A DNA stretch of 64,000 nt from Chiloscyllium plagiosum (Eukaryota), in NCBI RefSeq assembly GCF_004010195.1, contig NC_057718.1, positions 86,020,683 to 86,084,682 on the forward strand. Direction: 5' to 3'. Made by a program: the position numbers and the translations under genes. This document shows, piece after piece, positions 10,935 to 60,927 of the stretch (position 1 is the stretch's first letter; each line of letters starts with the position of its first letter). The notes under the pieces are model-generated. The model was not told the origin of the DNA and searched no databases. It saw only the letters and a program-made list of their open reading frames with translations.

Positions 10935-11529
10935 TTACATTGACCAGCTTTGTTCCCATCGTTTAATGGAATTCTGGATGGTGATGAAGGGAAATTTCAC
11001 AGAATTCAGCACCTCCTCTCTGAAATTCCTCTGTGTGATTGCATAAATAAATGTGTTGGTGCAGGAGCTGGATAGCTGAAGCATTATCGCCATGCGATCT
11101 CCCACCCAATAACTAACTGATGCTAAAGTATACCACCCAGTAATTCGCTGAACTGTGAGAATTCTGACATGAGTGATCCATTAAAGGATAAAACTGCCTG
11201 CTATGGCAAAGAGCAAAATGATGGATTCTCAGTGCAGAATTTTCTCTTCAGTTTCTGGAAACAAATAGCCACCATCCAGTCAAAGGTGAAGGTGACTGTG
11301 AGCCAGACTGAGCTACTTACAGCTGTGGAACCAATAACGTCTCTGATGCTACAACCAGGAGGGTAGTGGAGGAACACAATGTGAAGATATAAGTAATTCA
11401 TCTTGTCCAGTATGACTTGAATAATGACAATCAGTAGATCTGTTACAGCCGTTATGATCAGGTACCAAGTGACACCTTTAGAAAGACCACACTTCCCTTG
11501 TGCTAGAGTCACAATTGCAATTAGGTTAG
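10935..11529 (-). pseudogene. Divergent GPR139/GPR142-like GPCR pseudogene (exon 2 remnant with large internal deletion)
   Basis: Acceptor TTTTTTACATTTACAG|CT AAC at 11530/11529. TM1-TM3 read ANLIAIVTLAQGKCGLSKGVTWYL..TDLL..SVWLTVTFTFDW. At about 11228 it jumps to TM6 (SIILLFAIAGSFIL*W) and TM7 (MLQLSSSCTNTFIYAITQRNFREE), ending at TAA 10935-10937. Confidence 0.85.
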
Positions 11530-12238
11530 CTGTAAATGTAAAAAAGGATGTCATACCAAATTTAGAGTGAAAATGTGTAAGTCGTCTAAGCATTAAAAAT
11601 TTACAATTTTACAGCTTGTAAGAAATAAACAGACTGGAGACATTGTCCAAAGGTGTCAATAGGTAAGATTCTCAATGGACAATGAGAATATAATTTGCGC
11701 AGAAGCATAAAGCTTTTTTTTTTCAGGTAAGTGCAAGTTATATCAAGTGTTTTGCAGGAATTCTTACTGTTCATCCCCATGTCTCTTTCCTCCATATATT
11801 ACCAAATGCACCTCATTCATGACCCACTCCACTTGTAGGGTGTCACTCACATCCAATGTTATCCCTAACTTCCCATGTTCCATTCCCAGAATATCTCACT
11901 GGATATCCCTGGAATGATTGATATCCCTTGTGCTCGTGCCAACTTTAAAATCCCACAGTGCACCTGGGCAAGCACTGTGAGGCCTGAGCTGATCTGCATG
12001 GTGACTCAGAAAAGAAACCATTGGTTTGCCCCTGATGTGGCAGACATGGGGAAATGGACATTTCAGTTTGTGGGGAGGTAACTGGAGCTCCTGCTGGATG
12101 GGAGGATTCAGACACAGAATATCCTTGTCCCAATATTTGATCAGTTGTCATAATAAACCGTCTGTTTCACTGACATTCTTCAGGGAGAAATCGGCCATCT
12201 TTACCTAGTTTGGCCTCAATGAGACACTAGGTGCCCAA

Positions 12239-13050
12239 TAGAACATAGAACATAGAACAATACAGCACAGAACAGGCCCTTCGGCCCACGATGTTGTGCC
12301 AAGCATTTGTCCTAGCTTAAGCACCCATCCATGTACCTATCCAATTGCCGCTTAATGATTCTGACTCTGCCACTCCCACAGGCAGCGCATTCCATGCCCC
12401 CACCACTCTCTGGGTAAAGAACCAACCCCTGACATCCCCCCATACCTTCCACCCTTCACCTTAAATTTATGTCCCCTTGTAANNNNNNNNNNNNNNNNNN
12501 NNNNNNNNNNNNNNNNNNNNNNNNNNNNNNNNNNNNNNNNNNNNNNNNNNNNNNNNNNNNNNNNNNNNNNNNNNNNNNNNNNNNNNNNNNNNNNNNNNNN
12601 NNNNNNNNNNNNNNNNNNNNNNNNNNNNNNGACTCCAAGATCCCTCTGCTCCTCCACCTTACTAAGAACCCTACCGTTAACCCTGTATTCCGCATTCTTA
12701 TTTGTCCTTCCAAAATGGACAACCTCACACTTGACAGGGTTGAACTCCATCTGCCACTCCTCAGCCCAGCTCTGCATCATATCTAAGTCCCTTTGCAGCT
12801 GAAAACAGCCCTCCTCACTATCCACAACTCCACCAATCTTCGTATCATCTGCAGATTTACTGATCCACCCTTCGATTCCCTCTTCCAAGTCATTAATAAA
12901 AATTACAAACAGCAGAGGACCCAGAACTGATCCCTGCGGAACTCCACTTGTAACTGGGCTCCAGGCTGAATATTTACCATCTACCACCACTCTCTGACTT
13001 CGACCGGTTAGCCAGTTTTCTATCCAACTGGCCAAATTTCCCTCTATCCC
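12239..13050 (-). mobile_element. CR1-type LINE 3' portion (contains N-gap 12483-12630)
   Basis: ORF 12352..13116 [21 protein letters not shown]; (ATAGAAC)n tail at about 12239-12260. Confidence 0.9.
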
Positions 13051-13154
13051 ATCCCATCCCATGCCCAATAATTCAGTTGCCTCTTGTTTTTTACGTGGAC
13101 AAAGGACTAATCTCAAGAGGTGATGGGAGAGTGACTAGTCTTGACATCAAACAG

Positions 13155-15140
13155 AAAATGAGGACTACAGATGCTGGAGATCAGAGTCAAAAAGTGTGGT
13201 GCTGGAGAAGCACAGCCCATTAGGAAGCATCCAAAGAGCAGGAGAGTCAATGTTTTGGGCATAAGCCCTTCATCAGGAATGTGGGGTGGGGTGGGGGGAT
13301 GCCCAAGGGGTCTGAAAGATAAATAGTAGGGCTGTAGGGGAAGGTCGCTGGGAAGGTGATAGGTGGATGCAGGTGCGGGGTGATGGGGATAGGTTGTGGT
13401 GGAAGTTGGACCGGACAGGTGGGAAGAAAAATGGACCAGTGGGAGTGCTGTGCCACCTCGAGGGTTGGTTCTGGGATAAGTTGGGGGGAGGGGATATGAG
13501 GAAACTGGTGAAATCTACATTGATCCCGTGTGGTTTGAGGGTCCCAGGGCAGAAGATGAGGCATTCTTCCTCCAGACATCGTGTGGTTAGGATTTGGCGG
13601 CGGAGGAGGCCCAGGACTTGCATGTCTTTGTGGAGTGTCAGGGGATGTTGAAGTGGTCGGCCACAGAGCGGTGGGTTGTTACATGCGTGTGTACCAGAGA
13701 TATTCTCTGAAACATTTCGTAAGTTGGCATCCTGTCTCCCCAGTGTAGAGGAGACCACGTCAGGAGTAACAGATAAAGTAGATCACGTGTTTGGATGTGC
13801 AGGAAAATGTTTCCCAGATGTGTAAGAACCCTTTAGGTCCTTGGACAAAGGTACAGAGAGAGGTGTGGGTGCAGGTTTTACATCTCTTGCACTGGAAAGA
13901 GAAGGTGCCGGGAGTGGAGGGTTGGTTGGTGGAGGGTGTGGACTAAATGAGGGCATCGTGGAGGGAATAGTCTCTGCAGATTGCTGAAAGGGGTGAGGAG
14001 GGAAATTTATCTCTGGAGGTGGGGTCTGACTGTAGGTGGTAGAAATGGTGGAGGATGATGTGTCGTATCTAGAAGTTGGTGGGGTGGAAGGTGAGGACCT
14101 GGAGGTGGGTGGGGGGTGTTCTACCCCTGTTGCAGTTGGAGGGGTGGGGTTCAAGGGCGGAGGTGCAGGAAGTGGAGAAGATGCGCTGGAGGGCATTGTT
14201 GAACACGCGGGAGGGGAAATTGCAGTCCTTGAAGTAGGAGACCATCTGGGATGTTCTGGAGGGGAATTGCTCTTCCTAGGAGGTGGAGGAATTGGGAGCA
14301 GGGGGTAGCTGCAGGTCGCTGTGGGAGTTGATGGGTTTGAAGTAGATGTCTGTGTTGAGTCAGTCACTGCAAATGGAGATGGAGAGGCCCAGGAAAGGGA
14401 GGGAGGTGTCCGAGATGGTCCAGATTAACTTGAGGTCAGGGTGGAAGGTATTCATGAGGTTGATGAACAGTTCAACTTCCTCGTGGGAGCACGAGGTAAC
14501 ACCGATACAGTCATCAATGTAACGGAGGAAAAAATGTGGAATAGTGCCTGTGTAAGTACAGAACATAGACTGTTCCACGTATCTGATGAAGCGGCGGGCA
14601 TGGCTGGGGCCCATGTGGGAACCCATGGCTACCCCTTGGCTCTGAAGGAAGTGGGAGGATTCGAAGGAGAAGTTGTTGAGGATAAGGACCAATTTCACCA
14701 ATCGAATGAATGTGTTGGTGGAGGGGGGGTGGTTGGGTCGACAGGAGATGAAGAAACGGAGGACTTGGAGGCCTTGGTCATGGCAGATGGGAGTGTCAAG
14801 GGAATGGATGTCTATGGTGAAGATGAGGCATTCAGGGCTGAGGTATCAAAAGTAATAGAGGAGGTGGAGGGCTTGAGTGGTCTCCTGAATATTTGTGGGG
14901 AGCTCCTGGACCAAGGAGTCAGGATGGTGTCAAGGTATGAGGAGATAAGTTCGGTGGGGCAGGAGTAGACGGAGATGATGGGTCTACCGGGGCAGTTAGG
15001 TTGGTGAATTTTGGGTAAGAAGTAGAACTGGGTGGTGCGGGGCTCCTGGACTATGAGGTTGGAGGCTATGGGTGGGAGATCCCCTGAGGTGATGAGATTG
15101 TGGATGGTTTGGGAGATGATAGTTTGGTGATGAGAGGTGA
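13155..15140 (-). mobile_element. Penelope-like retroelement (RT + GIY-YIG + terminal repeat), frameshifted
   Basis: ORFs 14812..15216 (FYFLPKIH..PGRPIIS), 14360..14701 (NNFSFES..QGVAMGSHMGP..FLRYIDDC..LPFL) and 13273..13758 (MQVLGL..RCLEEE.LIF..L.PHGINVDF); degenerate hammerhead motif at about 13248-13280. Confidence 0.9.
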
Positions 15141-15144
15141 AGTC

Positions 15145-15616: not shown

Positions 15617-15719
15617 GTGAAGTCGTGGTTAAGGTTGGAGGGGTGTCTTCAGCTGAGCATGCCATAAAGGAAGGAATTCTAGAAAAGTTAAAGTCAATGG
15701 GATCCTGAGGAAATAAGAT

Positions 15720-18712: not shown

Positions 18713-18934
18713 AGGAGAAAGTGAGGACTGCAGATGCTGGAGATCAGAGCTGAAAACGTGTTGCTGGAAAAGCACAGCAGGTCAGGCAGCATCCAAGGAG
18801 CAGGAGAATAAACGTTTCGGGCATGAGCCCTTCTTCAGGAATCCTGAAGAAGGGCTCATGCCCGAAACATCGATTCTCCTGCTCCTTGGATGCTGCCTGA
18901 TTTGCTGCGCTTTTCCAGCAACACATTTTCAGCT
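18713..18934. mobile_element. Palindromic Penelope-derived short insertion (family A) inside CR1
   Basis: 93-nt inverted arms 18748-18840 and 18842-18934 around centre 18841; each arm is the Penelope terminal sequence. Confidence 0.85.
18838..18877 (+). ncRNA. Minimal type I hammerhead ribozyme-like motif
   Basis: Stem I GGAAUC/GAUUCU; core CUGAAGA (18844-18850) plus A; stem II GGGC-UCAU-GCCC; GAAA; CAUC (ACGUC palindromic in sister copies). A mirror motif lies on the - strand. Confidence 0.65.
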
Positions 18935-20294
18935 TCATCGAGGAAGGAACCAAGTTGATAGATGAAGGAAGGGCTGCTGATGTCATATACATAGACTTTA
19001 GTAAGGTGTTTGATAAGGCTCCTCATTGTAGACTAATGGAGAAAGTGAAGTCACATGGTGTGCAGGGTGTTCTAGCTAGGTGGATAAAGAACTGGTTGAG
19101 CAACAGGAGACAGAGACTAGTAGTTGAAGGGAGTTTCTCCAAATGTCAAAAGGTGACCAGTGGTGTTCCACAGGGGTCAGTATTTAGGCCACTGTTGTTT
19201 GTAATATACGTAAATGATTCGGAAGAGGGCACTGTTGGTTCGATCAGCAAGTTTGCAGATGACACACAGATTGCTGGAGTAGCAGAAAGCATAAGGGACT
19301 GTCGCAGAATACAGGAGGATATAGATAGACTGGAGAGTTGGGTGGAAAAGTGGCAGATGGTTTTCAATCCAGGCAAATGTGAGGTGATGCATTTAGGCAA
19401 GACTAATTCTAGAGCGAATTATACAATGAATGGAAGAGCCTTGGGAAAAATGGATGGACAAAGAGATGTGGGAGTGCAGGTCCATTGTACCCTGAAGGTT
19501 GCTGCACAGGTGGATAGAGGGTCAAGAGGGCATATAGTATGCTTGCCTTCATTGGACGGGGTATTGAGATTTAGAGCTGGCAAGTCATGTAAAAATTGTA
19601 CAAGACATTGGTTCGGCCGCATTTGGCATACTGTGTACAGTTCTGGGCGCCACATTACCAAAAGGATGTGGATGCTTTGGAGAGAGTGCAGAGAGTCTGG
19701 TATGGAAGGTGCTAGCTATGAAGAGAGGTTGAGTAGGTTAGGTTTATTTTCACTATAAAAAATGAGATTGAGGGGGGACCTGATTGAGGTTTACAAAATC
19801 ATGAAGGGTATAGATAGGGTGGACAGAGACAAGTTTTTTCCCAGGGTGAAGGATTCAATATCGAGAGGTCACGCTTTCAAGGTGAGAGGTGGAAAGTTCA
19901 AGGGGGATACATGCGGCAAGTACTTCACACAGAGGGTGGTGGGCGTTTGGAACGCGTTGCCAGCAGAGGTGGCAGAGGCAGGCACGGTAGATTCATTTAA
20001 GATGCGTCTGGACAGATGTATGAGTAGATGGGGAGCAGAGGGATACAGGTGCTTAGGAATTGACCGACAGGTTTAGACAGTACATTTGGATCGGCTCAGG
20101 CTTGGAGGGCCGAAGGGCTTGTTCCTGGGCTGTAGATTTTCTTTGTTCTTTAGGTTCATAAACTTGAACCAGGGAACAATTTCTTACACAGTTACACAGC
20201 TCACCCGAGACTGACCCAAAGCTCCCGCTCAAGGTCACCTGACACATTCACTAAAATGGTCGGCAAGCAACTCCGATTACATACATAACATGCC

Positions 20295-22795: not shown

Positions 22796-22799
22796 GTTC

Positions 22800-27879: not shown

Positions 27880-30800
27880 ACTAGCTCTACCTACCAACTT
27901 TGTTTGGATCAACAATACCCACATGGTCATGAGCCTTTTCATTTGTTTAGCCACTTTCTGAAATGAAATGATCATTACATCCAATTGTCTCAGACACATT
28001 GCAGACAACATAAATGTTGAAATGTTGTGACACCAACACCAAATTCAAGGGTTCATTCTCAATTGTGGAATATCTCTGTTGATAAGGACTCAATTTTCTG
28101 GAAAAAAATGCCCATTAGGTCCGTCTATGTTCTCGTTGTCTTCTTGTAGCACCAACACCCACATCATTCGTATTGATAGCCATCTTGAATGACTTTGTGT
28201 AATTAGTTGTGGCTAACACTGGGGCAGTGGTTACTGCAGCTTTCAAGCTGTCAAATGTCTTCTGACAGTTCACTATCCACTGAGATTTTCTGCACCTCTT
28301 GAGTAAGTCAGTCAGTGGAGCAACCACACTGTGAAAATCCAGTACTGATGTGGAGGTGGCAGTGCTGGACTGGGGTAGACAAAGTTAAAAATCACACATC
28401 AGCAGGTTATAGTACAACAGGTTTATTTGGAAGCACTCGTTTTTGGAGCACTGCTCTTTTGACAGATAACTAGAAGGAGCAGCGCTCCAAAAGCTAGTAC
28501 TTCTAAATAATCCTGTTGAGCAAAATCCAGGACAAACTTCAGATAAAACCACTCAATTTCAGGAATTGTAGTACTGCCCTTTTCATCAATGGTTTGGGAA
28601 CATCCCCAATAACCTTAGTTTTCACATCCCATGTGGCCATCTATTCATGTCTTTTAACATGTTCCAGGAACATGACTTGGGCTTTTGCAAACTCAATCTT
28701 TGCTGAGTTCATCACCAAGCTTGCCTCCTGAAGTCGATTGAGCAATTCCAGTAAATGCTGCAAATGTTCCTTCCATGTCTGACTAAAAGTCATCAGGTTG
28801 TCAATGTATACCACACAATGAGATAATCCTGAATAGACTTTGAAATGTGACTGGTACATTTTTCATAACAAATGGCATGACTTTAAATTAGTACAGAATC
28901 GAAAAGTGTGTTCACGAAATCTGAAATGGTTTTCAGTCTTTCAGATTAAGGTACCTGCCATTATCCTTTAAGTAAGTCCAACTTAGAAATGTAATTTGTT
29001 TGTCCCACCATCTCAATGCATTCTTCCAAATGTTGAATAGGATATGAATCAGATTTTGTAACTGCATTGACTTTGCAATAGACCAGATAATCTTTGGGTT
29101 CTGTCTGGTTTTGGCACCATTACTATGGGTGAACTCCATTCACTGCAACTCACTTTGATTATGTTGTCTTTGAACATGTATTCAATCTTTTTTTGAACCT
29201 GTGCCAATTTTAGTGGATTAAGTCTATAAGGATATTGCTTAATTGGAACAGTATTTCCTTCAACTGCATTATGCGTAATTAGATTATTACTTTCCAGCTT
29301 ATTCCCACATATCTCTCCATGCAATGAGGTTAAATCTTTAAGTTCCTTTTGATTTTCCTCTGGAAGGTAACTCAGTAATTTATCCCAAGTTTTGAGAACT
29401 TCCTCATTGTCCAATTTAATTTGAAGAATGTTCAATTTAGAATCCTCTGAACCAGTAACACATTCTCCTTTTGCTTTCCTTCCTTATCAAAACACCTTCT
29501 GAGCATATTTACATGACACACTTTGTGAGACTTCTTTCTATCTGATGTTCTTATCAAATAATTCACCTCACTCAATCTCCCTTTGATTAAATATATCCAC
29601 TAAACCTTGCTTTTAATGGTTCACCTATCACTGGAAGTAACACTTGCACTTTATCTCCACAAGTAAAATTGTGAATTTGTGATTTCTTGTCTGTTTCCTG
29701 TTTCATCATATATTGTACTACTTTCAAAGTCTGGACAACTCACCCGCCTGAATATGTGATGGTCTCCATTTCCTGATCAAGGCGTTATTTTTAAGTTAAC
29801 AACATTCTGGAATAAACTCAGATTCTTCTTCTGTATATGTTTTTTGATACAAGTGCTTCAGTTTCTCATCATTCTGTTGTAAGTCAGCTAATTTCCCTGA
29901 AATAAAAATATCCATTTTCTCCTCCACCTGCGCTTGTTTCTTTTCTCAACCATTCAATCAGTCATGGTCTCGGATAATTGTATTTCAACTCCCTGGTCTT
30001 TATTCTTTGATTTTTCCTCCTGCTTCAACCCGTGGCTTTGTGACCTTGTTACCACACAGTCAGGATGTACTTCCTGTCAAACATCAGTTGTCTGATTTTC
30101 CACTGGCTTTTCCACCACAGTAGACAGCACTTCTACCTGTGAACCTGCTATGTCATTTCCAAGGATAAATTGTATTCCTGGAGCGGGGAATTTCTCCATT
30201 ACCCGCCACCCCCCACCACGTCTCTACTTTTAAATACTCCAATTTCACTTTACATAATGGAGCACTTCTTGTCTCACCATGAATTCCACATGTTACCACT
30301 TTTTCTATCATCAGTCCTTCCGAATTACACATCTCCTCATCTCTCAATATCAAAATGAATCTCTTGTTTCTATCTCTCTTATCCCTTAATATTGTAATGT
30401 GTTTCCCTGCTCATCCTGAGCACATGAGTAAACCTTACTCTCAGAAGTAAATGTTGTAAGAAGACCTGGTATTTACTTCTGAACCAGCCCCTGACCAGGT
30501 TGTACATTCTGCTGCAGCTTTTTAGCTTCCACTGTGCTTCCTTAATCATTTCAACAAAACTCACTGGCTTCTCCTGTTTTCCGACATCTGTCTTCCCAGC
30601 GATTTTTCTAAACCATCAACGCGGTGACTTCATGTGGCCCATCTCATTACAGTGAAAACACCTGAGCTTTTTCTCACCTCTCTTTCCCCCCTCAGGGGTT
30701 TCCTGTTTACCCTGTGGTGAATTATCTTTACTATCTCTTTCCTCAATTTCTATCACTCACAGATTGAAATTGATGCTGGATGCTACACATTGATTTATGA

Positions 30801-32630
30801 ACCAACACAAAATCATCAGCCATTTTCGCTGATAATCAGCTCTTCCACATGAGTTCTCATTGCTTCAGGAAGTGAGCTTTTGAACTTCTCCAAAATAATC
30901 GTCTTTCTAAGAGTGTAAGATGTTTGATGTATTTTCAATGCCTTATCCACCTATCAAATTACTTTGTGTGATCATTTCAAACTCAATGTATGTTGGACCA
31001 GGGTGCCTCTTTAAATTCCTGAAACATTGTCTGTCGGCTTCTGGTACTAGTACTTCAGATCGCTTTCTTCACCCCCTCATACTCCCCAGGGACTTCCTCT
31101 GATAGTTTTGCAAATAACTCACCAGCTCTACCTACCATCTTCGTTTGAATTCACAATACCCATATGGTCACTGGCCACTTCATTTATTTAGCCACTTCCT
31201 CAAATGAAATGAAGAAGCCTTCTGCATCTTTCTTGTTGAATTTAGGTAATGCTTAGGCATATTTAAAAAGATCCCCACCAGACCTTTGTCTACAATGAGT
31301 TTGCTCATCATCACTATCTTTGACACTGAACTTACCTTCTGCCTCCAACTCTGTCCTTTTACATCGACTTTCTTCCCTAATTACCAAGTTCTGAAGATCA
31401 AATGCTTTCTCTTTCTGCCTTTCTCATCTCTCTTTCTCTCTTTCTTCTGCTGGGATCTTCCTCTCCTTTTCTTTTTCCTCTGCTTTTAATCGTAATTCAA
31501 ACTGTTTCATTTCATTTTCTCTTTCTTTCTGTGCTGCCAATGCTATCCTTTCCTTATCTTTTGCCTCTGATTCAAACTGATTCATTAACAATTGAATTTT
31601 AGCCATTTCCAAAGATTCTGATGGTATTTTTGACGATTTTAAATGCTGTGCAATTGCCACAACTACCTCCCCTTTCCTTGCAGACCCAGACAACCCCAGC
31701 TCCAGCCTCTTCACCAATTCCAAAAGCTTTACTATGGTCACTTTTACTTGAACCCCTTGTTCCCAGCCCCTGAAGTTATTTCTTCCAGTCCCAGAAAACT
31801 CTTCATAACAGAACGATCCATTACTACACAAGGCACACCTGCTTAAACCAATCGGATCCAATACTCGAAATAAAAAGCACCAACAATTACCTCTCGCTGT
31901 CTTTGAGTTCAACGATCCTAAAGCTAACTTGGAATTACGGATTTCAGTTTTGACAAGAGCTGCAAGTTTATTGTGAACAAGACCAGTCACACAAAATATT
32001 TTAAGAGGGTAGACTAAACCCTAATCGTTTCTTATTTTTACAGTAACTGTGAAGTGCCGTGTTCCAGATGTAATGTGACTGGTCAAACAACTCGACATGA
32101 AACAAATCACAATTTATTTAAACATGAGACACATAATACACATAATACATTCAAAAAAAAGAAGAATTTAGAAAACCTCAACTGTTGGAAAACTTAACCA
32201 AATAATAGATACAGTAACTTTTATTATTTAACTGTTGCAATACAGCAACATCCCATCAACACAGCCCTTGGATAAAAGATAAATTCAGGCACAGACTCTC
32301 ACATGCTGTTCTCCAATCCAAGAGGAAAATTATCAAGAAAAAATTCAGGGAAAGTAGCATTTGAGAGACATTCACTGCAGCTCCCAACTCTTTTGAGACC
32401 CCAAATGTTTTTGATTAAAACTGAACCAAACAAGTGGAAAAAGACGAGAGAGCCTGGTGTGTGTGAGCTGGCCACATTCAGGCTGCTTCCATTGTTCCAA
32501 CCTTAAAACTAACGCCAAGGCCTCACAAATTGTTTACTTTCTGTGAGACACCTCTGCACCTCGGACTTACAAACTCTCTGCAAAAAAGAGAGGAGAAAAT
32601 AAGCTGTTAAAGTGACAGCATCGTCACCTT
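27880..32630 (-). mobile_element. Decayed Gypsy LTR retrotransposon, Gmr1-like order gag-PR-IN-RT-RH, with LTR-like 5' region at about 31970-32630
   Basis: Gag coiled coil (ORF 31424..31990); CFHCNEMGH knuckle at about 30635-30660; integrase C-terminus GDKVQVLLP..LKARFSG..CHVNML at about 29500-29690; RT WSSPIVMVPKPD (29049..29435) and VYIDN (28641..28859); linker/RNase H APLTDLLK..APVL (28115..28327). Confidence 0.85.
28347..28520. mobile_element. Family B Penelope-type palindromic insertion inside Gypsy RT
   Basis: CAACAGGTTTATTTGGAAGCACT...AGTACTTCTAAATAATCCTGTTG inverted arms; GGAGCAGCGCTCC hairpin followed by AAAAGCTAG. Confidence 0.7.
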
Positions 32631-33899
32631 GTTTTCGAGACCAGTACAGCAAGTGTTTTACTACCCAGCACCTGGGGGACAAGGAGAGGATCAGTTGATC
32701 AAACAATCTTGTTGATCAAGAAGTTCATACAACCAATATAAAAACACATTCAGTAATAGAAACATAATACAGGGGGGGGGGTACACATCTCTGTTATCCT
32801 TAATTTGCTGCAAAAATCAGTTTGATAATAATGTAATGTTGCCTTAAATAAAGCTTACTGACAGCGAGCCTTCTCACTCTCACTCTCAGGCATTGCAGAG
32901 ATTACAGGGATATTTCTGGTATTTCAGGGATATACTTGTTACTGGTTTATTGAGAGTTCCAGTTCACATGGTGCTGGTTAAACCAAAGTTTGCTGTGCAC
33001 AAAACAATATTTATACGTTTTGATATTTATAAAGACACGCATTGTCAGAGCTGACTCTATTGTGGATTATATTCAAGACAAAAAATGTGGAGATTTGGTT
33101 CAGTTTAAGGTGGATTAGAGATTGTTAGCTTTGAATTTGTTCCATGATGCCTCATATGGATTCTACCAAAAACATAGTCCGTTGAGCTTAAGCAAAGGAC
33201 TCAGTAAATGCAGATTTGCAAGCAGAAAATGCAAGGACTAGTAAAATAGGTGAGGCCTATTAGCTCTGTAAAGAGAGGAGAAATTTAGATTCAGAAGACT
33301 TGCCAAGGAAATGTCTGTGTGCGTCACATGGGTGGTGATGTGTGACTGTCAATGATACCGATAATCTGCCATTCATTTTACTCCTCTTTGGATAACAACA
33401 TTCACACAAACTGGACACTGTTGTCACATGGTGCGGGTGTAAGATCGATGTAGTGTGGTGCTCCACAGCAACATGTCCGCTCCCTTGGCTGATGATGGTT
33501 GGAAACCACGACAAACTGTCTGGCTTTGTGTCTGCACCAAAGTGAAGACATGACAGAAATATTGTGAGCCTTTAAGCTTTAGTTGGGGGGAAAGAATGAG
33601 AAAGGCCAGGCAAGGCATGGGAGAGACGCTTAGTGTAGAGAGCACTAAGAAAGTGAGCAAGGAGCCCTGAGATGGACCTGGCCCAATTGTTCTCCTTCAA
33701 TCTTCCAGTGTAGGTGAAGATTGTATTGTGTAATATCTGTTAAAATTAACTGTACCTGTTTGTTCAAACACCGCAAACTGATTTCACTGTCTCTGCATCT
33801 GCACAAAATCACAGGGGAGATTTAGTTGCTTTATATAACGGATGAATGTCTGATCATTCAGATCTGTCAACAACAATTGATATCGCCCTCTCTCTGAAA

Positions 33900-33969
33900 A
33901 TGGAATTACCAACAATTGAACAGATAGCTTTCACTTACTACCATTTCCTCACAATCTTCGGAGTTCCTG
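33900..33969 (+). CDS. GPR139/GPR142-like GPCR, coding exon 1 (copy a)
   Basis: ATG..MELPTIEQIAFTYYHFLTIFGVP+G, then donor GTAAGA at 33970. Phase 1 joins exon 2 to give FGVP-ANFLTIV, comparable to GPR139 LGLP-ANILTV. Confidence 0.85.
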
Positions 33970-34129
33970 GTAAGAAGCTGAAGCAGGTTGTGTTATCTTT
34001 TCAATCCCACTTTCACTCTGTTCTTTCCCCTGATATATCTCTCAGTGTATAAACCCTCCCTCTTTCTCTCCTCATGTTGGATCCAGTTTCAGGTGTTCCT
34101 ACAAGAAACAGGTCATGCTGTAAATTGTG

Positions 34130-36230: not shown

Positions 36231-36547
36231 CTTCATGCAGAAAGTCACCAAATACATCCAACCACTCCACCTGCAAATGTTTTGATGGATTTTTATCTGT
36301 TTCAGTGTCTCTAACATAACACTGCTGGAAAATCCTTTGCCTGCGTAACTTCTGAATCCCATAAAATTGTGGTCAATTGTGCTCACATTGAGTTTCGGTG
36401 TATTTCAGTTCGTCAATGTTCAAAGGGGGCAGCCCCTCGCAATCCCACCCACCCTTCTGTTTAATTATAGACTGGCATAAGGCAATGTGATGGGGGGGTA
36501 CATTCACTCAATCCATCTCTACAATTGATATCGCCCTCTCTCTGAAA

Positions 36548-36617
36548 ATGGAATTACCAACAATTGAACAGATAGCTTTCACTTACTACCATTTCCTCAC
36601 AATCTTTGGAGTTCCTG
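36548..36617 (+). CDS. GPR139/GPR142-like GPCR, coding exon 1 (duplicate copy b)
   Basis: Same peptide as copy a with one synonymous TTC/TTT change; donor GTAAGA at 36618. Confidence 0.8.
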
Positions 36618-36779
36618 GTAAGAAGCTGAAGCAGGTTGTGTTATCTTTTCAATCCCACTTTGGCTCTGTTCTTTCCCCTGATATATCTCTCAGTGTATAA
36701 ACTCTCCCTCTTTCTCTCCTCATGCTGGATCCAGTTTCAGGTGTTCCTACAAGAAACAGGTCATGCTGTAAATTGTGAA

Positions 36780-38760: not shown

Positions 38761-39326
38761 CACCTTCATGCAGAAAGTCACCAAATACATCCAACCACTC
38801 CACCTGCAAATGTTTTGATGGATTTTTATCTGTTTCAGTGTCTCTAACATAACACTGCTGGAAAATCCTTTGCCTGCGTAACTTCTGAATCCCATAAAAT
38901 TGTGGTCAATTGTGCTCACATTGAGTTTCGGTGTATTTCAGTTCGTCAATGTTCAAAGGGGGCAGCCCCTCGCAATCCCACCCACCCTTCTGTTTAATTA
39001 TAGACTGGCATAAGGCAATGTGATGGGGGGGTACATTCACTCAATCCATCTCTGTAAAGGGTTTCTAGTTTGAGAAAGATTTTGCTTCCTTCCAATCTGT
39101 GCAATATTTCTACACATTTGTGAGGTTGCCTGATGGGAAATCTCAGTAAATAGACAAGGCTGAAAGAAATAATATCTCAATATTGTAACACAAAATTGGT
39201 GGGAGGAAACACGTGTGCAGTGTAAACCTCAGCGTAGACCTATTGGACCAAATGGCCTGGTTTTGTGTCATGATCTTTTATCAATGCTGTGTTATTAATC
39301 TGGAGATTCTGCTCTTTTCTCTGTAG

Positions 39327-40279
39327 CTAACTTCCTGACAATTGTCCTTCTAACTCGTGGAGGCTGTGGTCTATCCAAAGGGATCTCTCTTTATTTGGTG
39401 GGTATGACGACAGTTGATCTCCTGGTCATTATTTCCAATGTGATAATCTACTACATGCTTTACTACTATTTCCCATTTTCATTTCTACACTTCACCTCAA
39501 TAAGGAGCATCAATGTGGTGATCAACTACACAGCTGTTGACTGCTCTGTTTGGCTCACGGTCGCTTTCACTGTCGATCGTTTTGTCCTCATTTGTTGCCA
39601 GAGATTGAGAGCAAAGTATTGCAGGGAGGAAACTGCAGCTGTGGTTATAGTGACTGTGTGTGTTGTGTTCTCACTCAAAAATATTCCCTTGTATTTTGCT
39701 GTTGGGCCAATCTATATAATTAACAATGTGGAATGGGGTGCTTATTTCAAGCCAGACTACTTTATCTTACCAGGATGGATCAGTTTTGACTGGCTTGACA
39801 CAATTTTAAACCCATTATTGCCATATTTTCTCATTTTATTGCTCAATGCACTAACTGTTCGACACATTGTGATAGCGAATCGAACCCGCAGAGCACTGCA
39901 AGGTCAACGCAACACCCAGAACAGCGACGATCCAGAGATGCAGAGCCGAAGGAAATCCATCACGTTACTGCTCACCATTTCTGGCACTTTCATCGTGCTG
40001 TGGATGCCATATACTATGTTTTTCCTGATTTCTAGATTTACAGATACATTTTATGAGCCAGATCATTATACTGATCCCTTAGTAATCGCAGACTACACGG
40101 GAGATATGTTTCAACTGCTGAGTTCCTGTACAAACACATGCGTTTATGCATTGGCTCAGTCTAAATTCAGAAAAAAATTGATAAATGCCGTTATATATCC
40201 ATTTCTTGCACTTAAGAACTGTGTCAATTTTTTAAAAAACATGCTGACTGGAAACAAAATTGCAAAGCTTTCATATTAA
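39327..40279 (+). CDS. GPR139/GPR142-like class A GPCR, coding exon 2 (TM1 C-half to C-terminus); spliced product about 340 aa
   Basis: Acceptor CTCTTTTCTCTGTAG|CT at 39326/39327. Open frame with TM1 AN, TM2 VDLL, TM3 SVWLTVAFTVDRF, TM4 NIP, TM5 PLLP..LLNAL, TM6 RKSITLL..FIVLWMP and TM7 NTCVY plus helix 8 SKFR; stop TAA at 40277-40279. Confidence 0.92.
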
Positions 40280-40529
40280 TCTACTGAGTACAACAATTCT
40301 GTCCTCATAGGTCTATACTAACTACAAGTCTTGACTCTGCATCGCAGGGTCATGTGATCAAGCACATGACTGAGGCTGACAGAATTCCACTTCAGATGAG
40401 CTGGTAACACTACACCAGTCCATGCTCCTCATTGGATGTAACATTTCCCACAGCCCTCCTTTGAGGACAAGCAGTGAAGTCATCCATGGTCTTCTGACTA
40501 ATATTTATCCTCTAACCAACATCACTGAA

Positions 40530-47934: not shown

Positions 47935-49820
47935 GTCCTCCACCTGTTCTTGTTTTTTTCTCAACCATTTGATCAAACAAAATTTCTGATAAATTGAACT
48001 TAACTTCCTTATCTCTATTCTTGGTTTCTCCTCTTGCTTCAATCGGTGGCCTTGTGATCTTGTTATCACACAGTCAGGAAAAATCCCAGGATATACTTCC
48101 TGTTATACCTCAGTTGCTTGATTTCCACTGGCTTTTCAACCACAGTAGGCTTCACTCCCCTGTGATCCAGCTATATCATTACTAACGATAAATTGGTTTA
48201 CTGGAACTGAGAGTTCCTCCAGTACTCCTTCCACCATTTAGCTCCATTTCACCAGACTCTCCAACCTCACTTTATATCATGGCACACTGCTCCTCTCCAT
48301 GAATTCCACATATTACCACTTTACCTCACAACACTTCTTCTGAACTACACACCTTCTCATCTCTCACCATCAAAGATTGACTTGTATCTCTCAAAATTTT
48401 AATTTCTTTCCCTGCTCCACTTGGCGTACACACACACACAGGCTGTACCCTCACAAGGCAATTCTTTAAAGCGATCTGTCACTTTCTTCTCAACCAATCC
48501 CTGACCAGGCTGTACATTATGGTGCAGCTTTTTACCTTCCACTGTGCTTTCCTTTTCCATTTCAAGGAACCTCCCGGGCTCATCCCAGTGCTTTTTCTAA
48601 CCCACCAACACTATGGCCTCATGTGGCCCATCTCATTGCAATGAAAACAGCTGACCTTTTTTACTTCTCTCTGCCCATTGCAGGTTCCCTGTTTACCCTG
48701 TAATAAACTATCTTTACTATCATCAATGGGATCTCCCTTTCCCTTACCGCTTGAGAATTTCACTTTTCCCCATTTCTATGCCTCACAGATTGAAATTATT
48801 GTCGGAAGCCAAATTTTGATTTATGAACCAACTCATAATCATTTGGCATTTCCATTGCTAATCTTGCTGTTTTAACTCTCTGCTTTTCCACATGAATTCT
48901 TCTTACTTCAGGAAGTGAAGTCTTGAATGCCCTGTAAGTAATTGTCTCTCTAAGAGAGTCATATATTTGATCTATTTTCAATCCCTTTATCAAAAATACT
49001 TTGTTTGATCCTTTCAAACTCAATATGCATTTGACCAGTTTCTCTCCTTAAATTCCTGAAATGCTGTCTGTAGGTTTCTGGTGCTTTTATGTTGGCCTTT
49101 ATCATGTCATTATACTCCCCAGACAACTCATCTGATAGTGATACAAATCCCTCATGAGCCCTATGTCCAAATGTATTTTTGGATCAACAATAACCACACG
49201 ATCGCAGACCATTTCATTTGTTTCACCACTTTCTCAAATGTAATGAGAAGGGTTCCTGTATCCTTCTCATCGAACTTAGGCAACATTTGGGCCTATTTAA
49301 ACAGATCCCCATAGGCATTTGGCTACAGTGGGATTACTCTCTATCACTATCTTCATCCCCAGTTCTATTTTTCATTTCTACCTTTGCAATTTTAAGTCGA
49401 CTCTAGCCTCTCAGTTCCAAGTTCAAAACCTCTCTCTGTTTCTCTTTCTTCTCTCAATTTGTCTTTTTCTTCTTTCTCTTTCTGCTTTTCCTCTGTTTTC
49501 ATTGTAATTCAAACTGTTTTATTTCCATTTCACTTCCTCTTTGTTCAGCCAGGACTATTCTTTCCTTTCCTTTGCCATTGCCTCGACTTTAAGCTGCTTC
49601 ATGTACAATTGTATTTTAGACATTTCCCAAGATTCCAAATAGCATGATCCTCATTCTGTGGGAGTTTGACCACACCCATCCAGGCTGCTTCTATTGTTCC
49701 AAATTTAAACAAAAACACCCATGTCCTCACACGTTGTCTACTCTAGTGGTTCTGGTAGCCTGCTCAGAATCTCTGCCTTAAAACTGCTCTTCAAAAAAAA
49801 ACAGTATAAAATAACCTCTT
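47935..49820 (-). mobile_element. Gypsy (Gmr1-like family) gag-protease relic plus LTR part
   Basis: Collinear with 29920-31630; CFHCNEMGHM knuckle at about 48620-48650; ORF 48796..49023 (YDSLRE..FKTSLPEVR.HVE). Confidence 0.75.
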
Positions 49821-50960: not shown

Positions 50961-50979
50961 TCAGCAGGTGGACCTCATA

Positions 50980-52680: not shown

Positions 52681-52688
52681 GTTGGCTG

Positions 52689-53797: not shown

Positions 53798-54688
53798 TCA
53801 CTTTTTCAAAGAATATTTGACATATTGAATAATTACAAGAAATTTATACATTATTGCATTTTTCAACTTTTCTCTGAATTTGGACTGAGCCAATGCACAG
53901 GAGCTCAGCAGGTGAAACATATCTCCAGTATACTTTGTGAGAAGTAAGGGATCAGTATAATGGTCTGGCTCATAAAATGTATCTGTAATCCTCAAAATGA
54001 GGAAAAACATTCTATATGGCATCCACAGCACAATGAAAGTGCCAGAAATGGTGAACAATAAAGTGATGGATTTCCTTCGGCTCTGCATCTCTGGATCGTC
54101 ACTGTTCTGGGTGTTGCGTTGACCTTGCAGTGCTCTGCGGGTTCGATTAGCCATCACAATGTGTCGGACAGTCAGTGCATTGAGCAGTAAAATGAGAAAG
54201 AATGGCAATAGTGGGTTTAAAATTGTGTCAATTCAGTCAAACCTGATCAATCCTGACAAGATAAAGTAGTCTGGTTTGAAATGAGCACCCCATTCCACAT
54301 TGTTAATGATATAGATTGGCCCAACAGCAAAATACAAGGGAATATTTTTGAGTGAGAACACAGCACACACAGTCACTATAACCACAGCTGCAGTCTCCTC
54401 CCTGCAATATTTTGCTCTCAACCTCTGGCAACAAATGAGGACAAAGCGATCGACAGTGAAAGCGACCGTGAGCCAAACAGAGCAGTCAACAGCTGTGTAG
54501 TTGATCACCTCATTGATGCTCCTTATTGAGGTGAAGTGTAGAAATGAAAATGGGAAATAGTAGTAAAGCATGTAGTAGATTATCACATTGGAAATAATGA
54601 CCAGGAGATCAACTGTCGTCATACCCACCAAATAAAGGGAGATCCCTTTGGATAGACCACAGCCTCCATGAGTTAGAAGGACAATTGT
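53798..54688 (-). pseudogene. GPR139/GPR142-like GPCR pseudogene (close paralog of 39327-40279)
   Basis: ORFs 54233..54631 and 53798..54208 share a frame and are split by TGA (TGG in the intact copy) at 54233-54235. An 18-nt deletion removes TNTCVY in TM7; the acceptor and exon 1 are missing. Confidence 0.92.
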
Positions 54689-55030
54689 GTCCCATCTCGT
54701 CCCCCGACTAATTTAAATCCTCCCAAGTTGCTCCAGCAAATCTCCCCACAGGTTTGTTAGTCCCCCTCCAATTCAGGTGTAGCCCGTCCTCCTTAGACAG
54801 AACACCCCTACTCCAGAAGAGATTCCAATGATCCAAAATTATGAATCCTTCTCCCCTGCAACAGCTCTTTAACCTCACATTTATCTGCCCTATCCTCCTA
54901 GTCCTACTCTCACTGACACATGACAATGGGTGTCATCCAGACATTGCTACCCTCCAGGACCTATTTTTTAACCTCCTCCCTAATGTCCCATATTCTCTCC
55001 TCAGAACTTCATCCTCTTCTCTTCCTCTGC
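54689..55030 (-). mobile_element. CR1 ORF1 (SGNH esterase-like) fragment
   Basis: ORF 54708..54926 RIGQINVRLKSCCRGEGF..DHW..FW..DGLHLNWRGTN. Confidence 0.8.
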
Positions 55031-56049
55031 CATTAAAGGCTCACAATATTTCTGTTGTATCTTCCCTTTGGTGCAGACACAAAGCCAGACAGTTTGTTGT
55101 GGTCTCCAGCCGTCATCAGCCAAGGGAGCGGACATGTTGCTGTGCAGCACCGCACTACATCGATCTTGCACCCGCATCATGTGACAACAGTGTCCAGTTT
55201 GTATGAATTGTGTCATCCAAAATGGAATAAAATGAATGGAACAATATTGGTATCATTGACAGTCACGCATCACACTCCATGAGACACACATCGACACTTC
55301 CTTGGCAAGTCTTCCATATCTAGATTTATTCTCTCTTTAGAGAGCTAATCAACCCTCCCCAATTTACTCGACCTCACTCTTTCTCTGTCCAAACATAAAT
55401 TACCTGAGTCCTTTGGTTCAGCACAACACACCATGTTTTTCACAGATTTTGGCTTCACTGACTGCAGCCCAACAATGTCTCTTTCCCTGAACTCTAGTAC
55501 CATGGCCCCTTTCACCTTCCCATTGGTTTCAGACAGGACCCTTCCTCAGGATCTGTTGTGCCTTTTCCAGCTCCAAGCTTCATCAACTCTGATTTCTCCA
55601 GCATCAGCAGGTCCCCATTGTCTCCTTATTATTGAAGTGATTGATGCTGGAAATAAAGGAGATCAGTGATGTGTATATGCCCTGCATGACCTTTCTGTTA
55701 CTCAGTGTGTGTTGTTACATTGATGATGTGAACCTCCTGATCAACCGGAATATTAGATCTACTCGTTCCCTCCTGGTCCCGTCGGTGCAGGGTAATAAAC
55801 TGTTTGCTGTCCTGGTCTGGAATACACACACAAAGGAACCTTTAGAAAGTTTGGCAGGAAGTCAGGGTTGAAGTGGACACCAAGCAGGTTAATCAGTCTG
55901 GAGCCAGAGAAAAGGGATTTCAATTGTATGAAGAAACTAAAGAATTTGGGATTGTTCCCTTATTCAAAATTTTGAAAAGTTTTGATAGATTTGAGAGAGA
56001 CAAAATCCTTTGAGCAGAGAGTCAGTAACCAAAGGTTAGATAAAATCTC

Positions 56050-57949: not shown

Positions 57950-59487
57950 CTCATCCTAATGAACCTCCCAGCTGCAGATGTATCTGTCCATGACATGACG
58001 GGGAAGAGTGACTCCCACACAGTCCTTGTGGAGGCCAGATCCTGCCTTCACATTGAGAATACTCTCCATTGTGTCGTGTGGCACTCTCACTGGGATAAAT
58101 GGGACTGATCTAACATCTCAAGACTTGGCTTCCATGAGGCACTGTGGACTATCAACACAATCTGTTTCCCCTCGCGTGGGGGATTTCAAGAGTGGAGGGA
58201 ATATTTTTAATGTGAAAAGAGAAAAATATTAACAAGACATGGGGGCAACTTTTGTTACACAGAGTGCATAGTGTGTGGTATGAACTCCCAGAGCAAGTGA
58301 TGGATGTGGGGTCATTTACAATATTTAGAAGCCATAAGAAAAAGTTTATGAAAAAGAAATGTTTAGAGGGATATGGGTGAAGCACAGGCAGTTGAAACTA
58401 GTTGAGTTTGGGATTCCATTCGGCATGGATTGGTTGGACTGTAGAGTCTGTTTCTGTGCTCCATGACTCCATGACTCTTTGACTCTTTGACTGTTTGACT
58501 TTACTCCAACACAATCTGCAACCTCATGGCCCTGTATATTCTCCACTCACCCATTGCCATCAAGCCAAGACATCAATCCTGGTACAATGGAGAGTGCAGG
58601 ACGACATGCCGGGAGCAGCACCAGGTATACCTAAAAATGAGATGACAGCCTGGTGAGGCTACCAAACAGGATTGTTTGCATGTCACACAGCATCAGAGCC
58701 AGTGATAGACAGAGCAAAGCAATCCCAAAACCAATGGATCAGACCTTTGTTCCATATTCCCACCACATCCAGTCATAAATGTTGGTGGTCAATTGAACAA
58801 CTCACTGGAGGAAGAATCTCCACAAATATCCCCATCCTCAATGACAGAAGAGTCCCACACATCTGTGTAAATGATAAATCTGAATCACTCACGTCAATAT
58901 TCAGACAGAAATGCCGAGTGGATGATCCAATTTGGGCACCTTCAGTGCTCCTCAGCATCACAGATACTGGTCTTCAGTGAATCCAATGCACTCCATGTGA
59001 TCTCAAGGAATGACTGGAAAAGCTGGATACTGGATGTGAGTCCCGACAATATTCTGGTCATAGTACTGAAAACTTGTGCTCCAGAACTTCCCACTCCCCT
59101 AGCCAATTTGTTCCTGTACATTTACAACATTCGGAATTCTGCAGCGAGCAATGTGACTCCCAAAGTCTGTCCACCATCTGTGAATAACAAGTCACGAATG
59201 CTATGGAATATTCCCCATTTGCCTGGATGTGTGAAGTTCCTGCAACCCTAAAGAAATGTTTCATCATTCAGGATAAGGCAGCCCGCTCGATTGGCACCAC
59301 ATCCACAAGCATTTACTCCCTCCACCAATGATGCTCAGTAGCAGCAGTGTGTATTGTCTTTAAGATGCATTGCAGAAATTCACCAAAGATCCCCAGACAG
59401 CACCTTCCAAACATACAACCACTTCCATCAAGAAGGACAAGGGCAGCACATGGATGGGATCGCAAACAGCTGAAAGTTCCCCTCCAT
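57950..59487 (+). mobile_element. Old CR1/L2-superfamily LINE, with a CR1 3' end inserted at about 58155-58495
   Basis: ORFs 58672..58980 and 58871..59251 (PDNI..VLKTCAPEL..PLA.LF); 59300-59480 matches the reverse of 41500-41700; (CTCCATGA) tail at about 58460. Confidence 0.7.
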
Positions 59488-60012
59488 NNNNNNNNNNNNN
59501 NNNNNNNNNNNNNNNNNNNNNNNNNNNNNNNNNNNNNNNNNNNNNNNNNNNNNNNNNNNNNNNNNNNNNNNNNNNNNNNNNNNNNNNNNNNNNNNNNNNN
59601 NNNNNNNNNNNNNNNNNNNNNNNNNNNNNNNNNNNNNNNNNNNNNNNNNNNNNNNNNNNNNNNNNNNNNNNNNNNNNNNNNNNNNNNNNNNNNNNNNNNN
59701 NNNNNNNNNNNNNNNNNNNNNNNNNNNNNNNNNNNNNNNNNNNNNNNNNNNNNNNNNNNNNNNNNNNNNNNNNNNNNNNNNNNGTGGGAAATGTTACACC
59801 CAATGAGGAGCATGGACTGGTGTTGTGTTACCAGCACATCTGAAGTGGAATTCTGTCAGCCCCAATCATGTGCTTGATCACATGACCCAGTGATGCAGAG
59901 ATGTGAATAGACCACAGAGCCAAGACTGTTACTTAGAGTTTGTATCAACCTCTGAAGACAGAATTGTAATAGTCAGTAGATTGATGGGAATGTGTTGTAA
60001 CTTTGTTTCCAG

Positions 60013-60927
60013 TCACTTTTTAAAACAATATTTTACATGTTGAAAAATTTCAAGAAATGGAAATATTATTGCATTTCTCAAATTATCCCTGAATTTAGAC
60101 TGAGCCAATGCATAAATCAACGTGTTTGTACAGGAGCTCAGCAGTTGAAACATATCTCCAGTATAGTTTGCAATAAATATGGGATTGGTATCATGATCCG
60201 GCTGATAAAATTTTTCTGTAATTCTAGAAATGAGGAAAAACATAATATATGACATCCACAGCACGATGAAAGTGCCAGAAGTAACGAGCAGCAAAGTGAT
60301 GGATTTACTTCGGCTCTGCATCTCTGGATTGTCACTGTTCTGGGTGTTGCGTTGACCTTGCAGTGCTCTGCGGGTTCGGTTAGCCATCACAATGTGTCGG
60401 ACAGTCAGTGTATTAAGGAGTAAAATTATAAAGAATGGCAATAGTGGGTTTGAAATTGTATCAAGCCAGTCAAAACTGATCCATCCTGGCAAGATAAAGT
60501 AGTCTGGTTTGAAATGAGAGCCCCACTCCACATTGTTAATTATATAGATTGGCTCAAATCCAAAACACAAGGGAATATTTTTGAGTGAGAACGCAACGCA
60601 CACAGTCAGTATCACCACAGCTGCAGTTTCCTCCCTGCAATACTTTGCTCTCAACCTCTGGCAACAAATGAGGACAAAGTGATCGACAGTGAAAGTGACC
60701 ATGAGCCAAACAGAGCAGTCAACAGCTGTGTAGTTGATCACCTCATTGATGCTCCTTATTGAGGTGGTGTAGAAATGAAAATGGGAAATAGTAGGAAAGC
60801 ATGTAGATTATCACATTGGAAATAATGACCAGGAGATCAACTGTCGTCATACCCACCAAATAAAGAGTGATCCCTTTAGATAGACCACAGCCTCCACGAA
60901 TTAGAAGGACAATTGTCAGGAAGTGCA
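60013..60927 (-). pseudogene. GPR139/GPR142-like GPCR exon 2, frameshifted paralog
   Basis: Acceptor CTTTTCTTTGTAG|TG at 60928/60927. ORFs 60743..60928 and 60013..60741 are split by a 2-nt deletion near 60767 (CACTTCACC to CACCACC); N1.50 to H and DRF to DHF. Confidence 0.85.

Follow-up and report, generated by a model that had tools for sequence, protein, structure and literature searches.

Four related class A GPCR loci (A to D), contained in the 64,000 nucleotides of Chiloscyllium plagiosum DNA analysed here (the window), appear to have arisen when an old vertebrate paralogue of GPR139/GPR142 expanded in cartilaginous fishes, and the family to which they belong is tentatively interpreted, as the most likely explanation of the data as a whole, as a repertoire of chemical sensors. 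Both tblastn and a family HMM identified exactly four two-exon loci of this class in the window, with scores of 65–663 bits, whereas 20 shuffled windows yielded at best 25 bits, and these searches, together with the mapping of the lesions, bear out the earlier note, which had described one intact gene and three independently pseudogenised relatives. The limits of the cluster are exact, 10935 being the stop of locus A and 60927 the first base of exon 2 of locus D. The features are the following:

10935–11529, minus strand: exon-2 remnant of locus A, a divergent subfamily member that keeps C3.25
33168–33575, plus strand: region upstream of locus B, 84% identical to 55033–55440 (minus strand) upstream of locus C
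33873–39053, plus strand: tandem duplication (33873–36520 and 36521–39053; 2.6 kb) of exon 1 and most of intron 1 of locus B
33900–33969, plus strand: upstream copy of locus B exon 1, 70 nt from ATG to phase-1 donor, matching the family HMM
36548–36617, plus strand: second copy of locus B exon 1, encoding the same peptide with one silent difference
39327–40279, plus strand: exon 2 of locus B, open through to the stop, yielding with exon 1 a 340-aa class A GPCR
53798–54688, minus strand: pseudogene of locus C, 87% amino acid identity to B
55033–55440, minus strand: region upstream of locus C, homologous to the region upstream of B
60013–60927, minus strand: exon-2 pseudogene of locus D, about 80% amino acid identity to B, with an intact acceptor
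61208–63696, minus strand: pieces of intron 1 of locus D, homologous to the intron of B

Locus B is intact; its exon 1 encodes the N-terminus and most of TM1, and its GT-AG intron is inserted in phase 1 at the end of TM1, the position and phase also attributed to an intron of GPR139. The product is a class A (rhodopsin-like) GPCR, as indicated by its Pfam 7tm_1 match (E 2.5e-13, above cut-off), by an AlphaFold2 model (pLDDT 92) in which the seven helices form a helical bundle, by a DRx motif reading DRF and by the NxxxY signature of TM7. The NTxxY form of this signature and the lack of an N-terminal glycosylation sequon, two properties attributed earlier to this protein, are both confirmed, the only sequons being found at residues 90 (TM3) and 208 (ICL3). 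Furthermore, B lacks both C3.25 and the ECL2 cysteine and has an acidic pocket made up of D95, D181, D279 and D283. The doubling of its exon 1, which the earlier note does not mention, extends over two blocks of 94.5% (1471 nt) and 97.9% (1067 nt) identity and may be what is left of a fifth copy from which exon 2 has disappeared; the 94.5% identity and the presence of an insertion make an assembly artefact unlikely. The region 33168–33575 is a candidate promoter region.

The other three loci are broken in different ways. Locus A has suffered a deletion of ~100 codons (TM4 to ICL3), a frame change near 11230 and a later stop (11183–11181), its R3.50 is replaced by W, and its 33–47% identity to B places it in a different subfamily, the closest relative among the sequences searched being the epaulette-shark model P0178 (81% and 69% over its two pieces). 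Locus C is interrupted by a TGA (54235–54233) and, after 53898, has lost 18 nt of TM7 without a change of frame, with unrelated DNA in place of exon 1, intron and acceptor, and locus D carries a 3-nt deletion after 60807, a 2-nt frameshift after 60767 and the substitutions N1.50H, R3.50H and P6.50S. Searches of the window by blastn, tblastn and HMM found no exon 1 for A, upstream of which there are N gaps, nor for C or D; that of D would lie past the window end. The lost exon 1 of C, the substitutions of D and the separate subfamily of A had likewise gone unmentioned before.

Judged from their sequences, B, C and D are close paralogues forming a conserved subfamily that is characterised by an acidic pocket and by the lack of the TM3–ECL2 disulfide. 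The dN/dS values among them are 0.33–0.53, although two of the three are pseudogenes, and, being below 1, point to purifying selection. Since one conserved acidic pocket is common to all three, the cluster in the window reflects turnover of copy number rather than diversification of ligands.

Human GPR139 (PDB 7VUG, 9M42), whose TM7, like that of the family, lacks the proline of NPxxY, is the best PDB match of B (28 bits, E 8.8e-6), of each of three relatives tried and of the family profile (115 bits, E 2.9e-32, vs 87 bits, E 1.3e-23, for the next structure), which argues for the inclusion of B, C, D and A in the wider GPR139/142 group. To this extent the designation “GPR139/142-like” of the earlier note holds, but the close kinship that it implied is not supported; B scores 131 bits with an amphibian and 116 bits with a coelacanth paralogue, both bearing unrelated names, a comparison that is rough in that these scores come from a database other than that of GPR139. 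The weakness of the 28-bit match, the ~20% identity in the structural (Foldseek) alignment of B with GPR139 and the loss of the Trp/Phe pocket speak against the four loci being GPR139/GPR142 orthologues, and the family differs from GPR139 also by its many copies; human GPR139 is described as highly conserved (PMC6367278). In the fold search 7VUG takes sixth place, and GPR139 is not distinguished from other receptors of the peptide type.

In a tree of 67 rows, true GPR139 and GPR142 sequences not being among them, computed with the IQ-TREE topology held fixed, the SH-aLRT support is 94.5 for the family, 94 for its union with an amphibian/sturgeon gene and 99.7 when a second single-gene vertebrate clade, containing the coelacanth, is added. 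The sister of the family is thus a bony-vertebrate gene with a single occurrence in each species (20 rows from amphibians and 1 from a sturgeon among 25 matches), which offers a tractable reference for the ancestral ligand. This gene probably falls among the “GPR210” subtypes of Rinne et al. (2019), i.e., GPR210A/B and a third subtype, non-mammalian orphans that flank GPR139/GPR142 and are present in coelacanth, gar and teleosts (PMC6504862). These subtypes match the two or three single-gene clades found here; no expansion is reported and no cartilaginous fish is sampled in that paper, whereas the present family has many copies precisely in cartilaginous fishes.

The size of the family is considerable, with 1,380 matches at E ≤ 1e-5 among 3,262 candidates, a count that rests on protein models of other species only. 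The best 120 of these 1,380 matches, with species labels transcribed by hand, are all named from cartilaginous fishes, and 58 of them are from Heterodontus francisci, so that at least 58 distinct proteins of one shark are hidden behind the automatic NCBI label “probable GPR139” borne by most models. These numbers and the pseudogenes substantiate the expansion and fast turnover previously proposed, and show in the family the numerous clustered paralogues with pseudogenes that are typical of receptor repertoires. The family is very large and, so it appears, undescribed, and its multiplication took place in sharks, rays and chimaeras; our literature searches found no description of the expanded family, and the whale-shark supplementary data contain only an orthogroup named GPR142. 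The subfamily of B has been retained in seven or more shark genera and in a chimaera. As to the character of the members, 63 of the 64 models of standard length are devoid of a sequon in the N-terminus (median position of N1.50, 25), and the C3.25–ECL2 disulfide is kept in 164 of 172 rows; the one shark subfamily from which the two cysteines have been lost as a pair represents a natural experiment in GPCR structure.

The pocket of the family, at positions which we take to be those of the generic numbering, is its most variable part: over 172 rows the entropy is 2.55 bits vs 1.91 for the other TM sites of the extracellular half and 0.97 for the intracellular half (p=0.0014, in a test treating as independent sites that are related by a tree), and the 58 proteins of H. 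francisci display 54 different 8-residue pocket signatures. In 24 orthologues from amphibians (0.03 vs 0.41), as also in 120 rows belonging to the second single-gene clade (0.69 vs 1.07), the relationship is reversed. The resemblance to receptor repertoires, suggested earlier, is thus upheld as far as the family pocket is concerned, this being hypervariable in the family and frozen in the single-gene relatives; within the subfamily of B, on the other hand, the excess is absent (0.60 vs 0.65 bits), so that a hypervariable pocket over a conserved intracellular face is a trait of the family and not of this subfamily.

It had also been surmised that these receptors sense aromatic amino acids, and a reading in which they are sensors like GPR139/GPR142, multiplied for nutrient or prey-odour sensing, draws support from the fact that GPR139 is the closest solved relative. 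As to the Trp/Phe-pocket residues of GPR139 (F3.33, H5x43, W6.48, R6.51 and N7x38; PMC5430874), 187 of the 193 family rows retain W6.48 and 93 an aromatic residue at 3.33; furthermore, a basic 6.51 is kept in amphioxus and in both single-gene clades, suggesting that the ancestral pocket was probably GPR139-like. However, the five residues are never found together (0/193), a basic 6.51 persists in only 13 rows, B has Y, D, W, Y and D at the five positions, and the pocket of its subfamily has a mean net acidic excess of 4.4 charges. The conjecture is thus not borne out, and this reading is now quite improbable; for B, C and D the acidic pocket favours a cationic ligand over Trp/Phe.

While gene anatomy, family size, tree position and pocket statistics are shown by the data, tissue, G protein and ligand are inferred, as follows. 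The receptors of the proposed chemical-sensor repertoire would act in epithelial sensory cells of the nose, of the taste buds or in solitary cells of skin or gill; each gene would present a near-constant intracellular face to a single G-protein pathway (Gq/Go, if GPR139 is a guide), and the pocket, varying from gene to gene, would make the members responsive to different small molecules or peptides carried in water, while the set would be renewed through tandem duplication and pseudogenisation. The B/C/D subfamily has kept one acidic pocket since the shark–chimaera split, its probable ligand being cationic (an amine or a basic peptide) and not Trp/Phe. OR, TAAR and V1R/ORA as well as V2R/OlfC receptors likewise form clusters subject to birth-and-death, with many pseudogenes and a variable pocket combined with a constant intracellular face, but have no sequence kinship to the family beyond class A; at E ≤ 0.001 the 111 aligned proteins match in Pfam only 7tm_1 and, weakly, Srx (13/111) and Srw (6/111), without any OR-, TAAR-, V1R- or T2R-specific profile. 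Clustering and variable pockets, it may be observed, fit immune or pain-sensing families too.

A bolder and on balance doubtful extension can be envisaged, namely that a fifth family of olfactory receptors has gone unrecognised in the present one, which would comprise from tens up to hundreds of genes in each shark, would be larger than OR, TAAR, V1R and V2R combined and would derive by recruitment from a receptor of the GPR139/GPR210 type, with B/C/D as an independent solution to amine detection parallel to the TAARs. Shark genomes are credited with 6–13 OR, 3–5 TAAR, 2–4 V1R and 8–43 V2R genes, and cartilaginous fishes are described as poor in olfactory receptors (PMC10116579) and in GPCRs generally (PMC8455134). 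If true, this proposal would explain the good sense of smell of sharks despite their apparently tiny repertoire; whether used for smell, taste or immune/pain sensing, the family may exceed all known shark chemoreceptor families together.

The statistics that speak for a repertoire also fit a cartilaginous-fish counterpart of the MRGPR and formyl-peptide receptors, expressed in leukocytes, mast-like cells or nociceptive neurons and responding to microbial, venom or host-defence peptides or to irritants. The MRGPR/MAS and formyl-peptide receptors are, like the family, class A receptors with a short N-terminus that occur in expanded clusters, and in some of them the pocket is acidic and accommodates cationic ligands; the short N-terminus, clustering and variable pocket of the family and, in the subfamily of B, the acidic pocket and lost disulfide would resemble those of MRGPRs. 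MAS1 and its relatives are reported absent from cartilaginous fishes (PMC8455134). The sequence kinship is nevertheless with the GPR139 group, no MRGPR or formyl-peptide receptor being among the top PDB matches of B or of the family profile, and the disulfide is retained in most members of the family, so that this explanation is held to be unlikely, if still a serious one.

Endogenous neuropeptide or hormone signalling in brain, gut or gonad is improbable. It is suggested by the protostome relatives, the deuterostome GPR139/142 group being sister to the protostome peptide receptors in a wider clade that comprises MIP/sex-peptide, proctolin and FMRFamide-type receptors and nematode Srw (PMC8557429), by the Srw and Srx matches and by the conserved pocket of B's subfamily, as a fixed ligand requires; neighbours in the ESM Atlas, whose names are automatic only, include Srw-bearing and arthropod clusters. 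The invertebrate-type outgroups used show only 22–26% identity, and the expansion of the protostome receptors is a separate one. Yet the frozen pocket predicted by this reading is found in the orthologue-like single genes and not in the family, and one endogenous ligand predicts neither hundreds of paralogues with divergent pockets nor frequent pseudogenes.

The transcripts seen so far bear on a last alternative. In one contig from a run on a related species, presumably of RNA, an exon-1-like piece is joined to the start of exon 2 as predicted, and the same contig skips 494 nt of exon 2, with consequent breakage of the frame. The only raw RNA reads found (135 from a paralogue; about 2% of one single-cell run) were considered as receptor expression and rejected, as they look like polyadenylated antisense RNA. 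Antisense or mis-spliced RNA, three dead loci out of four and a duplicated exon 1 in the fourth are what a mostly neutral expansion would leave, one in which repeat-driven tandem duplication in a repeat-rich genome produces copies that are for the most part silent or dying; the self-matching of the window, given below, fits as well. Such an origin has little probability, since the conservation of the intracellular half is strong, variation in the pocket exceeds that of the sites around it, dN/dS is below 1 and the subfamily has been retained from sharks to a chimaera. As regards the proposed chemical-sensor repertoire, the available list of the 50 top genes of catshark “brain and olfactory epithelium” includes no GPCR (PMC11979771), which is weak counter-evidence because receptors are usually low in bulk RNA.

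Finally, 40% of the length of the window matches elsewhere in itself, and Pfam analysis of its 17 other ORFs returned one SBP match, below cut-off and hence ascribed to chance, and two reverse-transcriptase pieces.

Searches of the window with the exon-2 protein (tblastn) and with the family HMM detected four class A GPCR loci, A (minus strand), B (plus strand), C and D (both minus strand), and no other signal above noise, the pieces of the loci scoring 65–663 bits as against ≤25 bits in 20 shuffled windows. The DNA in which they lie has a GC content of 42%, contains six N gaps and is repeat-rich, 40% of it matching itself elsewhere. Locus B is the intact one; its exon 1 (70 nt) and exon 2 (39327–40279), separated by a phase-1 GT–AG intron, yield a 340-aa protein that matches Pfam 7tm_1 and whose exon-2 part is predicted to form a confident helical bundle (pLDDT 92); as the earlier note had read, its TM7 carries NTxxY and its N-terminus has no sequon. 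The same note had counted one intact and three independently pseudogenised genes, and this count stands. Locus A, a member of another subfamily than B, displays a ~100-codon deletion with change of frame followed by a stop further on. Locus C is broken by a nonsense codon together with an 18-nt deletion in TM7, and locus D by a 2-nt frameshift and the loss of 3 nt; since these lesions differ, they are regarded as independent. Locus C is furthermore devoid of exon 1, intron and acceptor, the upstream block homologous to that of B being retained. These losses in C, the subfamily of A and the exon-1 duplication of B listed below go beyond the earlier note. Other features of the window are:

8921–9307, plus strand, 129-codon open frame with an SBP match below the cut-off (E 4e-4), probably due to chance
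14363–14845 and 18901–19755, reverse-transcriptase pieces
29920–31618 and 47936–49635, copies of a ~1.8-kb element, 69% identical to each other
33873–39053, tandem duplication of exon 1 of locus B together with 2.6 kb of intron
54689–55032, minus strand, unrelated DNA replacing exon 1 and intron of locus C

The last of these resembles a LINE ORF1 fragment, and the ORF remnants near the ~1.8-kb copies look gag/pol-like; Pfam gave no match in either case.

The DNA identity between B and C is 95–99% over TM1–TM4 (39327–39700 vs 54320–54688) and 71–95% further 3′, and dS is 0.06 over the former region as opposed to 0.2–0.4 beyond it, a mosaic pattern that suggests gene conversion. In a DNA run of a related organism, 485 contigs fall on 36500–40420, and as many as 17 variants coincide at a single position. 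The exon-1 region is represented there by a single contig of depth 166, compared with 6–17 for certain other pieces; although contig depth is not a copy number, this hints that near-identical exon-1 cassettes are numerous.

That the receptors belong to a lineage-expanded family, as had been proposed, is borne out by the protein search, in which 1,380 of 3,262 candidates matched at E ≤ 1e-5. The best 120 of these are all named from sharks, rays or a chimaera, and nearly all bear the automatic NCBI name "probable GPR139"; 13 of 14 further family-like representatives are chondrichthyan, the remaining one having no name. The nearest named relatives of the window's receptor genes, among the matches listed, are from carpet sharks (86–87% identity). 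Heterodontus francisci accounts for 58 of the best 120 proteins by manually transcribed species labels (median pairwise identity 75%). This is a lower bound for the family in that species, with the proviso that pseudogenes or isoforms may be among the models. In the open-access literature no paper was found describing a shark or cartilaginous-fish expansion of GPR139, GPR142 or GPR210 relatives.

The kinship with GPR139/142 suggested earlier holds in part. Human GPR139 is the best solved-structure match of B, but a weak one (28 bits; 20% identity and rank 6 in Foldseek); the family profile gives it 115 bits and the neurotensin receptor 87 bits. Two bony-vertebrate proteins come closer to B than GPR139 does, on scores from different databases: one from a salamander (131 bits), the other from a coelacanth (116 bits). 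The former retrieved 25 matches, namely 20 amphibian proteins, each from a different species, one from a sturgeon and four family members; teleosts and amniotes were missing, an absence that is soft in a word-filtered search. The coelacanth protein retrieved 145; among the 120 listed are three sharks as well as bony fishes, amphibians, turtles and squamates but no named mammal or bird, many rows lacking a name. This second clade is a second GPR139-like gene with one row per species; two of its models are labelled TMEM183A isoforms, which suggests that the gene adjoins TMEM183A.

Two trees were built without true GPR139 and GPR142 sequences: FastTree with 235 rows (227 of 304 proteins passing a length filter, five restored outgroups and B, C, D) and IQ-TREE with 67 rows, SH-aLRT being scored on a fixed topology. 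In both, the chondrichthyan family is a single clade (SH-aLRT 94.5), the amphibian/sturgeon gene its sister (94) and the second clade next outward (99.7), an anchovy protein and an amphioxus "GPR139" lying outside. Such non-mammalian subtypes are named GPR210A/B in the available text of Rinne et al., whose study includes no shark (PMC6504862); the bony-vertebrate relatives probably belong among them. In the amphibian sister the pocket hardly varies and is net basic; this receptor also has unusual S1.50 and N2.50 residues and is a good deorphanisation target.

The family is a genuine and very large variant, specific to its lineage, of a receptor kind already known, and its function is left to candidate readings. 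The GPR139 residues binding Trp/Phe are, in the accessible part of PMC5430874, F109, H187, W241, N271 and, by modelling, R244; at the equivalent aligned positions B has Y91, D181, W249, D283 and Y252, and none of 193 family rows holds all five GPR139 residues together, which speaks against the aromatic amino-acid sensing put forward earlier and leaves Trp/Phe sensing improbable. A basic residue at 6.51 occurs in 13/193 family rows vs 24/24 amphibian, 3/3 amphioxus and 119/120 second-clade rows. Over 21 pocket positions, fixed before entropies were viewed and drawn from generic numbering, the mean entropy of the family (172 rows) is 2.55 bits, compared with 1.91 for the other extracellular-half and 0.97 for the intracellular-half TM positions (p=0.0014 for the pocket excess, sites not being independent). 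The amphibian orthologues show the opposite order (pocket 0.03 vs 0.41), as does the second clade (0.69 vs 1.07). In H. francisci alone, 58 proteins carry 54 pocket signatures.

The leading, still tentative reading is a sensory repertoire in which many different pockets would feed one shared G-protein output and which would be renewed through tandem duplication and gene loss. Sharks are credited, in partial source texts, with 6–13 OR, 3–5 TAAR, 2–4 V1R and 8–43 V2R genes (PMC10116579), and a catshark top-50 olfactory list, as far as the text extends, contains no GPCR (PMC11979771). An MRGPR/FPR-like set for immune or pain sensing is rather unlikely, though the nearest competitor; sharks are described, in the portion available, as GPCR-poor and without MAS1 relatives (PMC8455134). 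Endogenous peptide signalling would be a long shot; the GPR139/142 group is placed as sister of protostome peptide receptors (PMC8557429, PMC12208981, both in part). Neutral proliferation deserves as little credence as Trp/Phe sensing; between B, C and D, dN/dS amounts to 0.33–0.53.

In the subfamily of B, which comprises 21 rows with one chimaera protein as well as B, C and D among them, the pocket is conserved (0.60 vs 0.65 bits) and acidic: D3.37 and D/E7.39 are found in 21/21 rows, D5x43 in 18/21 and E3.29 in 19/21, B itself having V at 3.29. This subfamily may therefore bind a cationic ligand, and acidic residues at such levels seem reminiscent of TAAR and MRGPR pockets. Both TM3–ECL2 disulfide cysteines are absent in 20/21 subfamily rows and present in the chimaera member and in 164/172 other family rows; the shark–chimaera split is dated to 420 million years in the accessible text of PMC6238376. 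This disulfide-less acidic subfamily, the single-gene amphibian/sturgeon sister, the probable GPR210 link and the failed Trp/Phe-pocket test are new here.

Four runs from related organisms were compared with 36500–40420 at 85% likeness. In one of them, presumably an RNA run, a contig connects an exon-1-like piece of 73 nt with the beginning of exon 2, which speaks for the predicted gene model; the same contig skips 494 nt inside exon 2 (39397–39890, GT..AG), breaking the frame, and this cryptic intron could represent unproductive splicing that tunes expression. A single-cell run placed 135 reads on 39767–40044; these derive from a paralogue, and its loose ends resemble a related protein (P0011). 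The first mates map to the plus strand, where a T run precedes them, and just inside it the minus strand carries a poly(A) signal; judging from library design, these reads are therefore apparently antisense polyadenylated RNA across the paralogue's exon 2. ECL2 codons make up this signal, which B, C and D lack.
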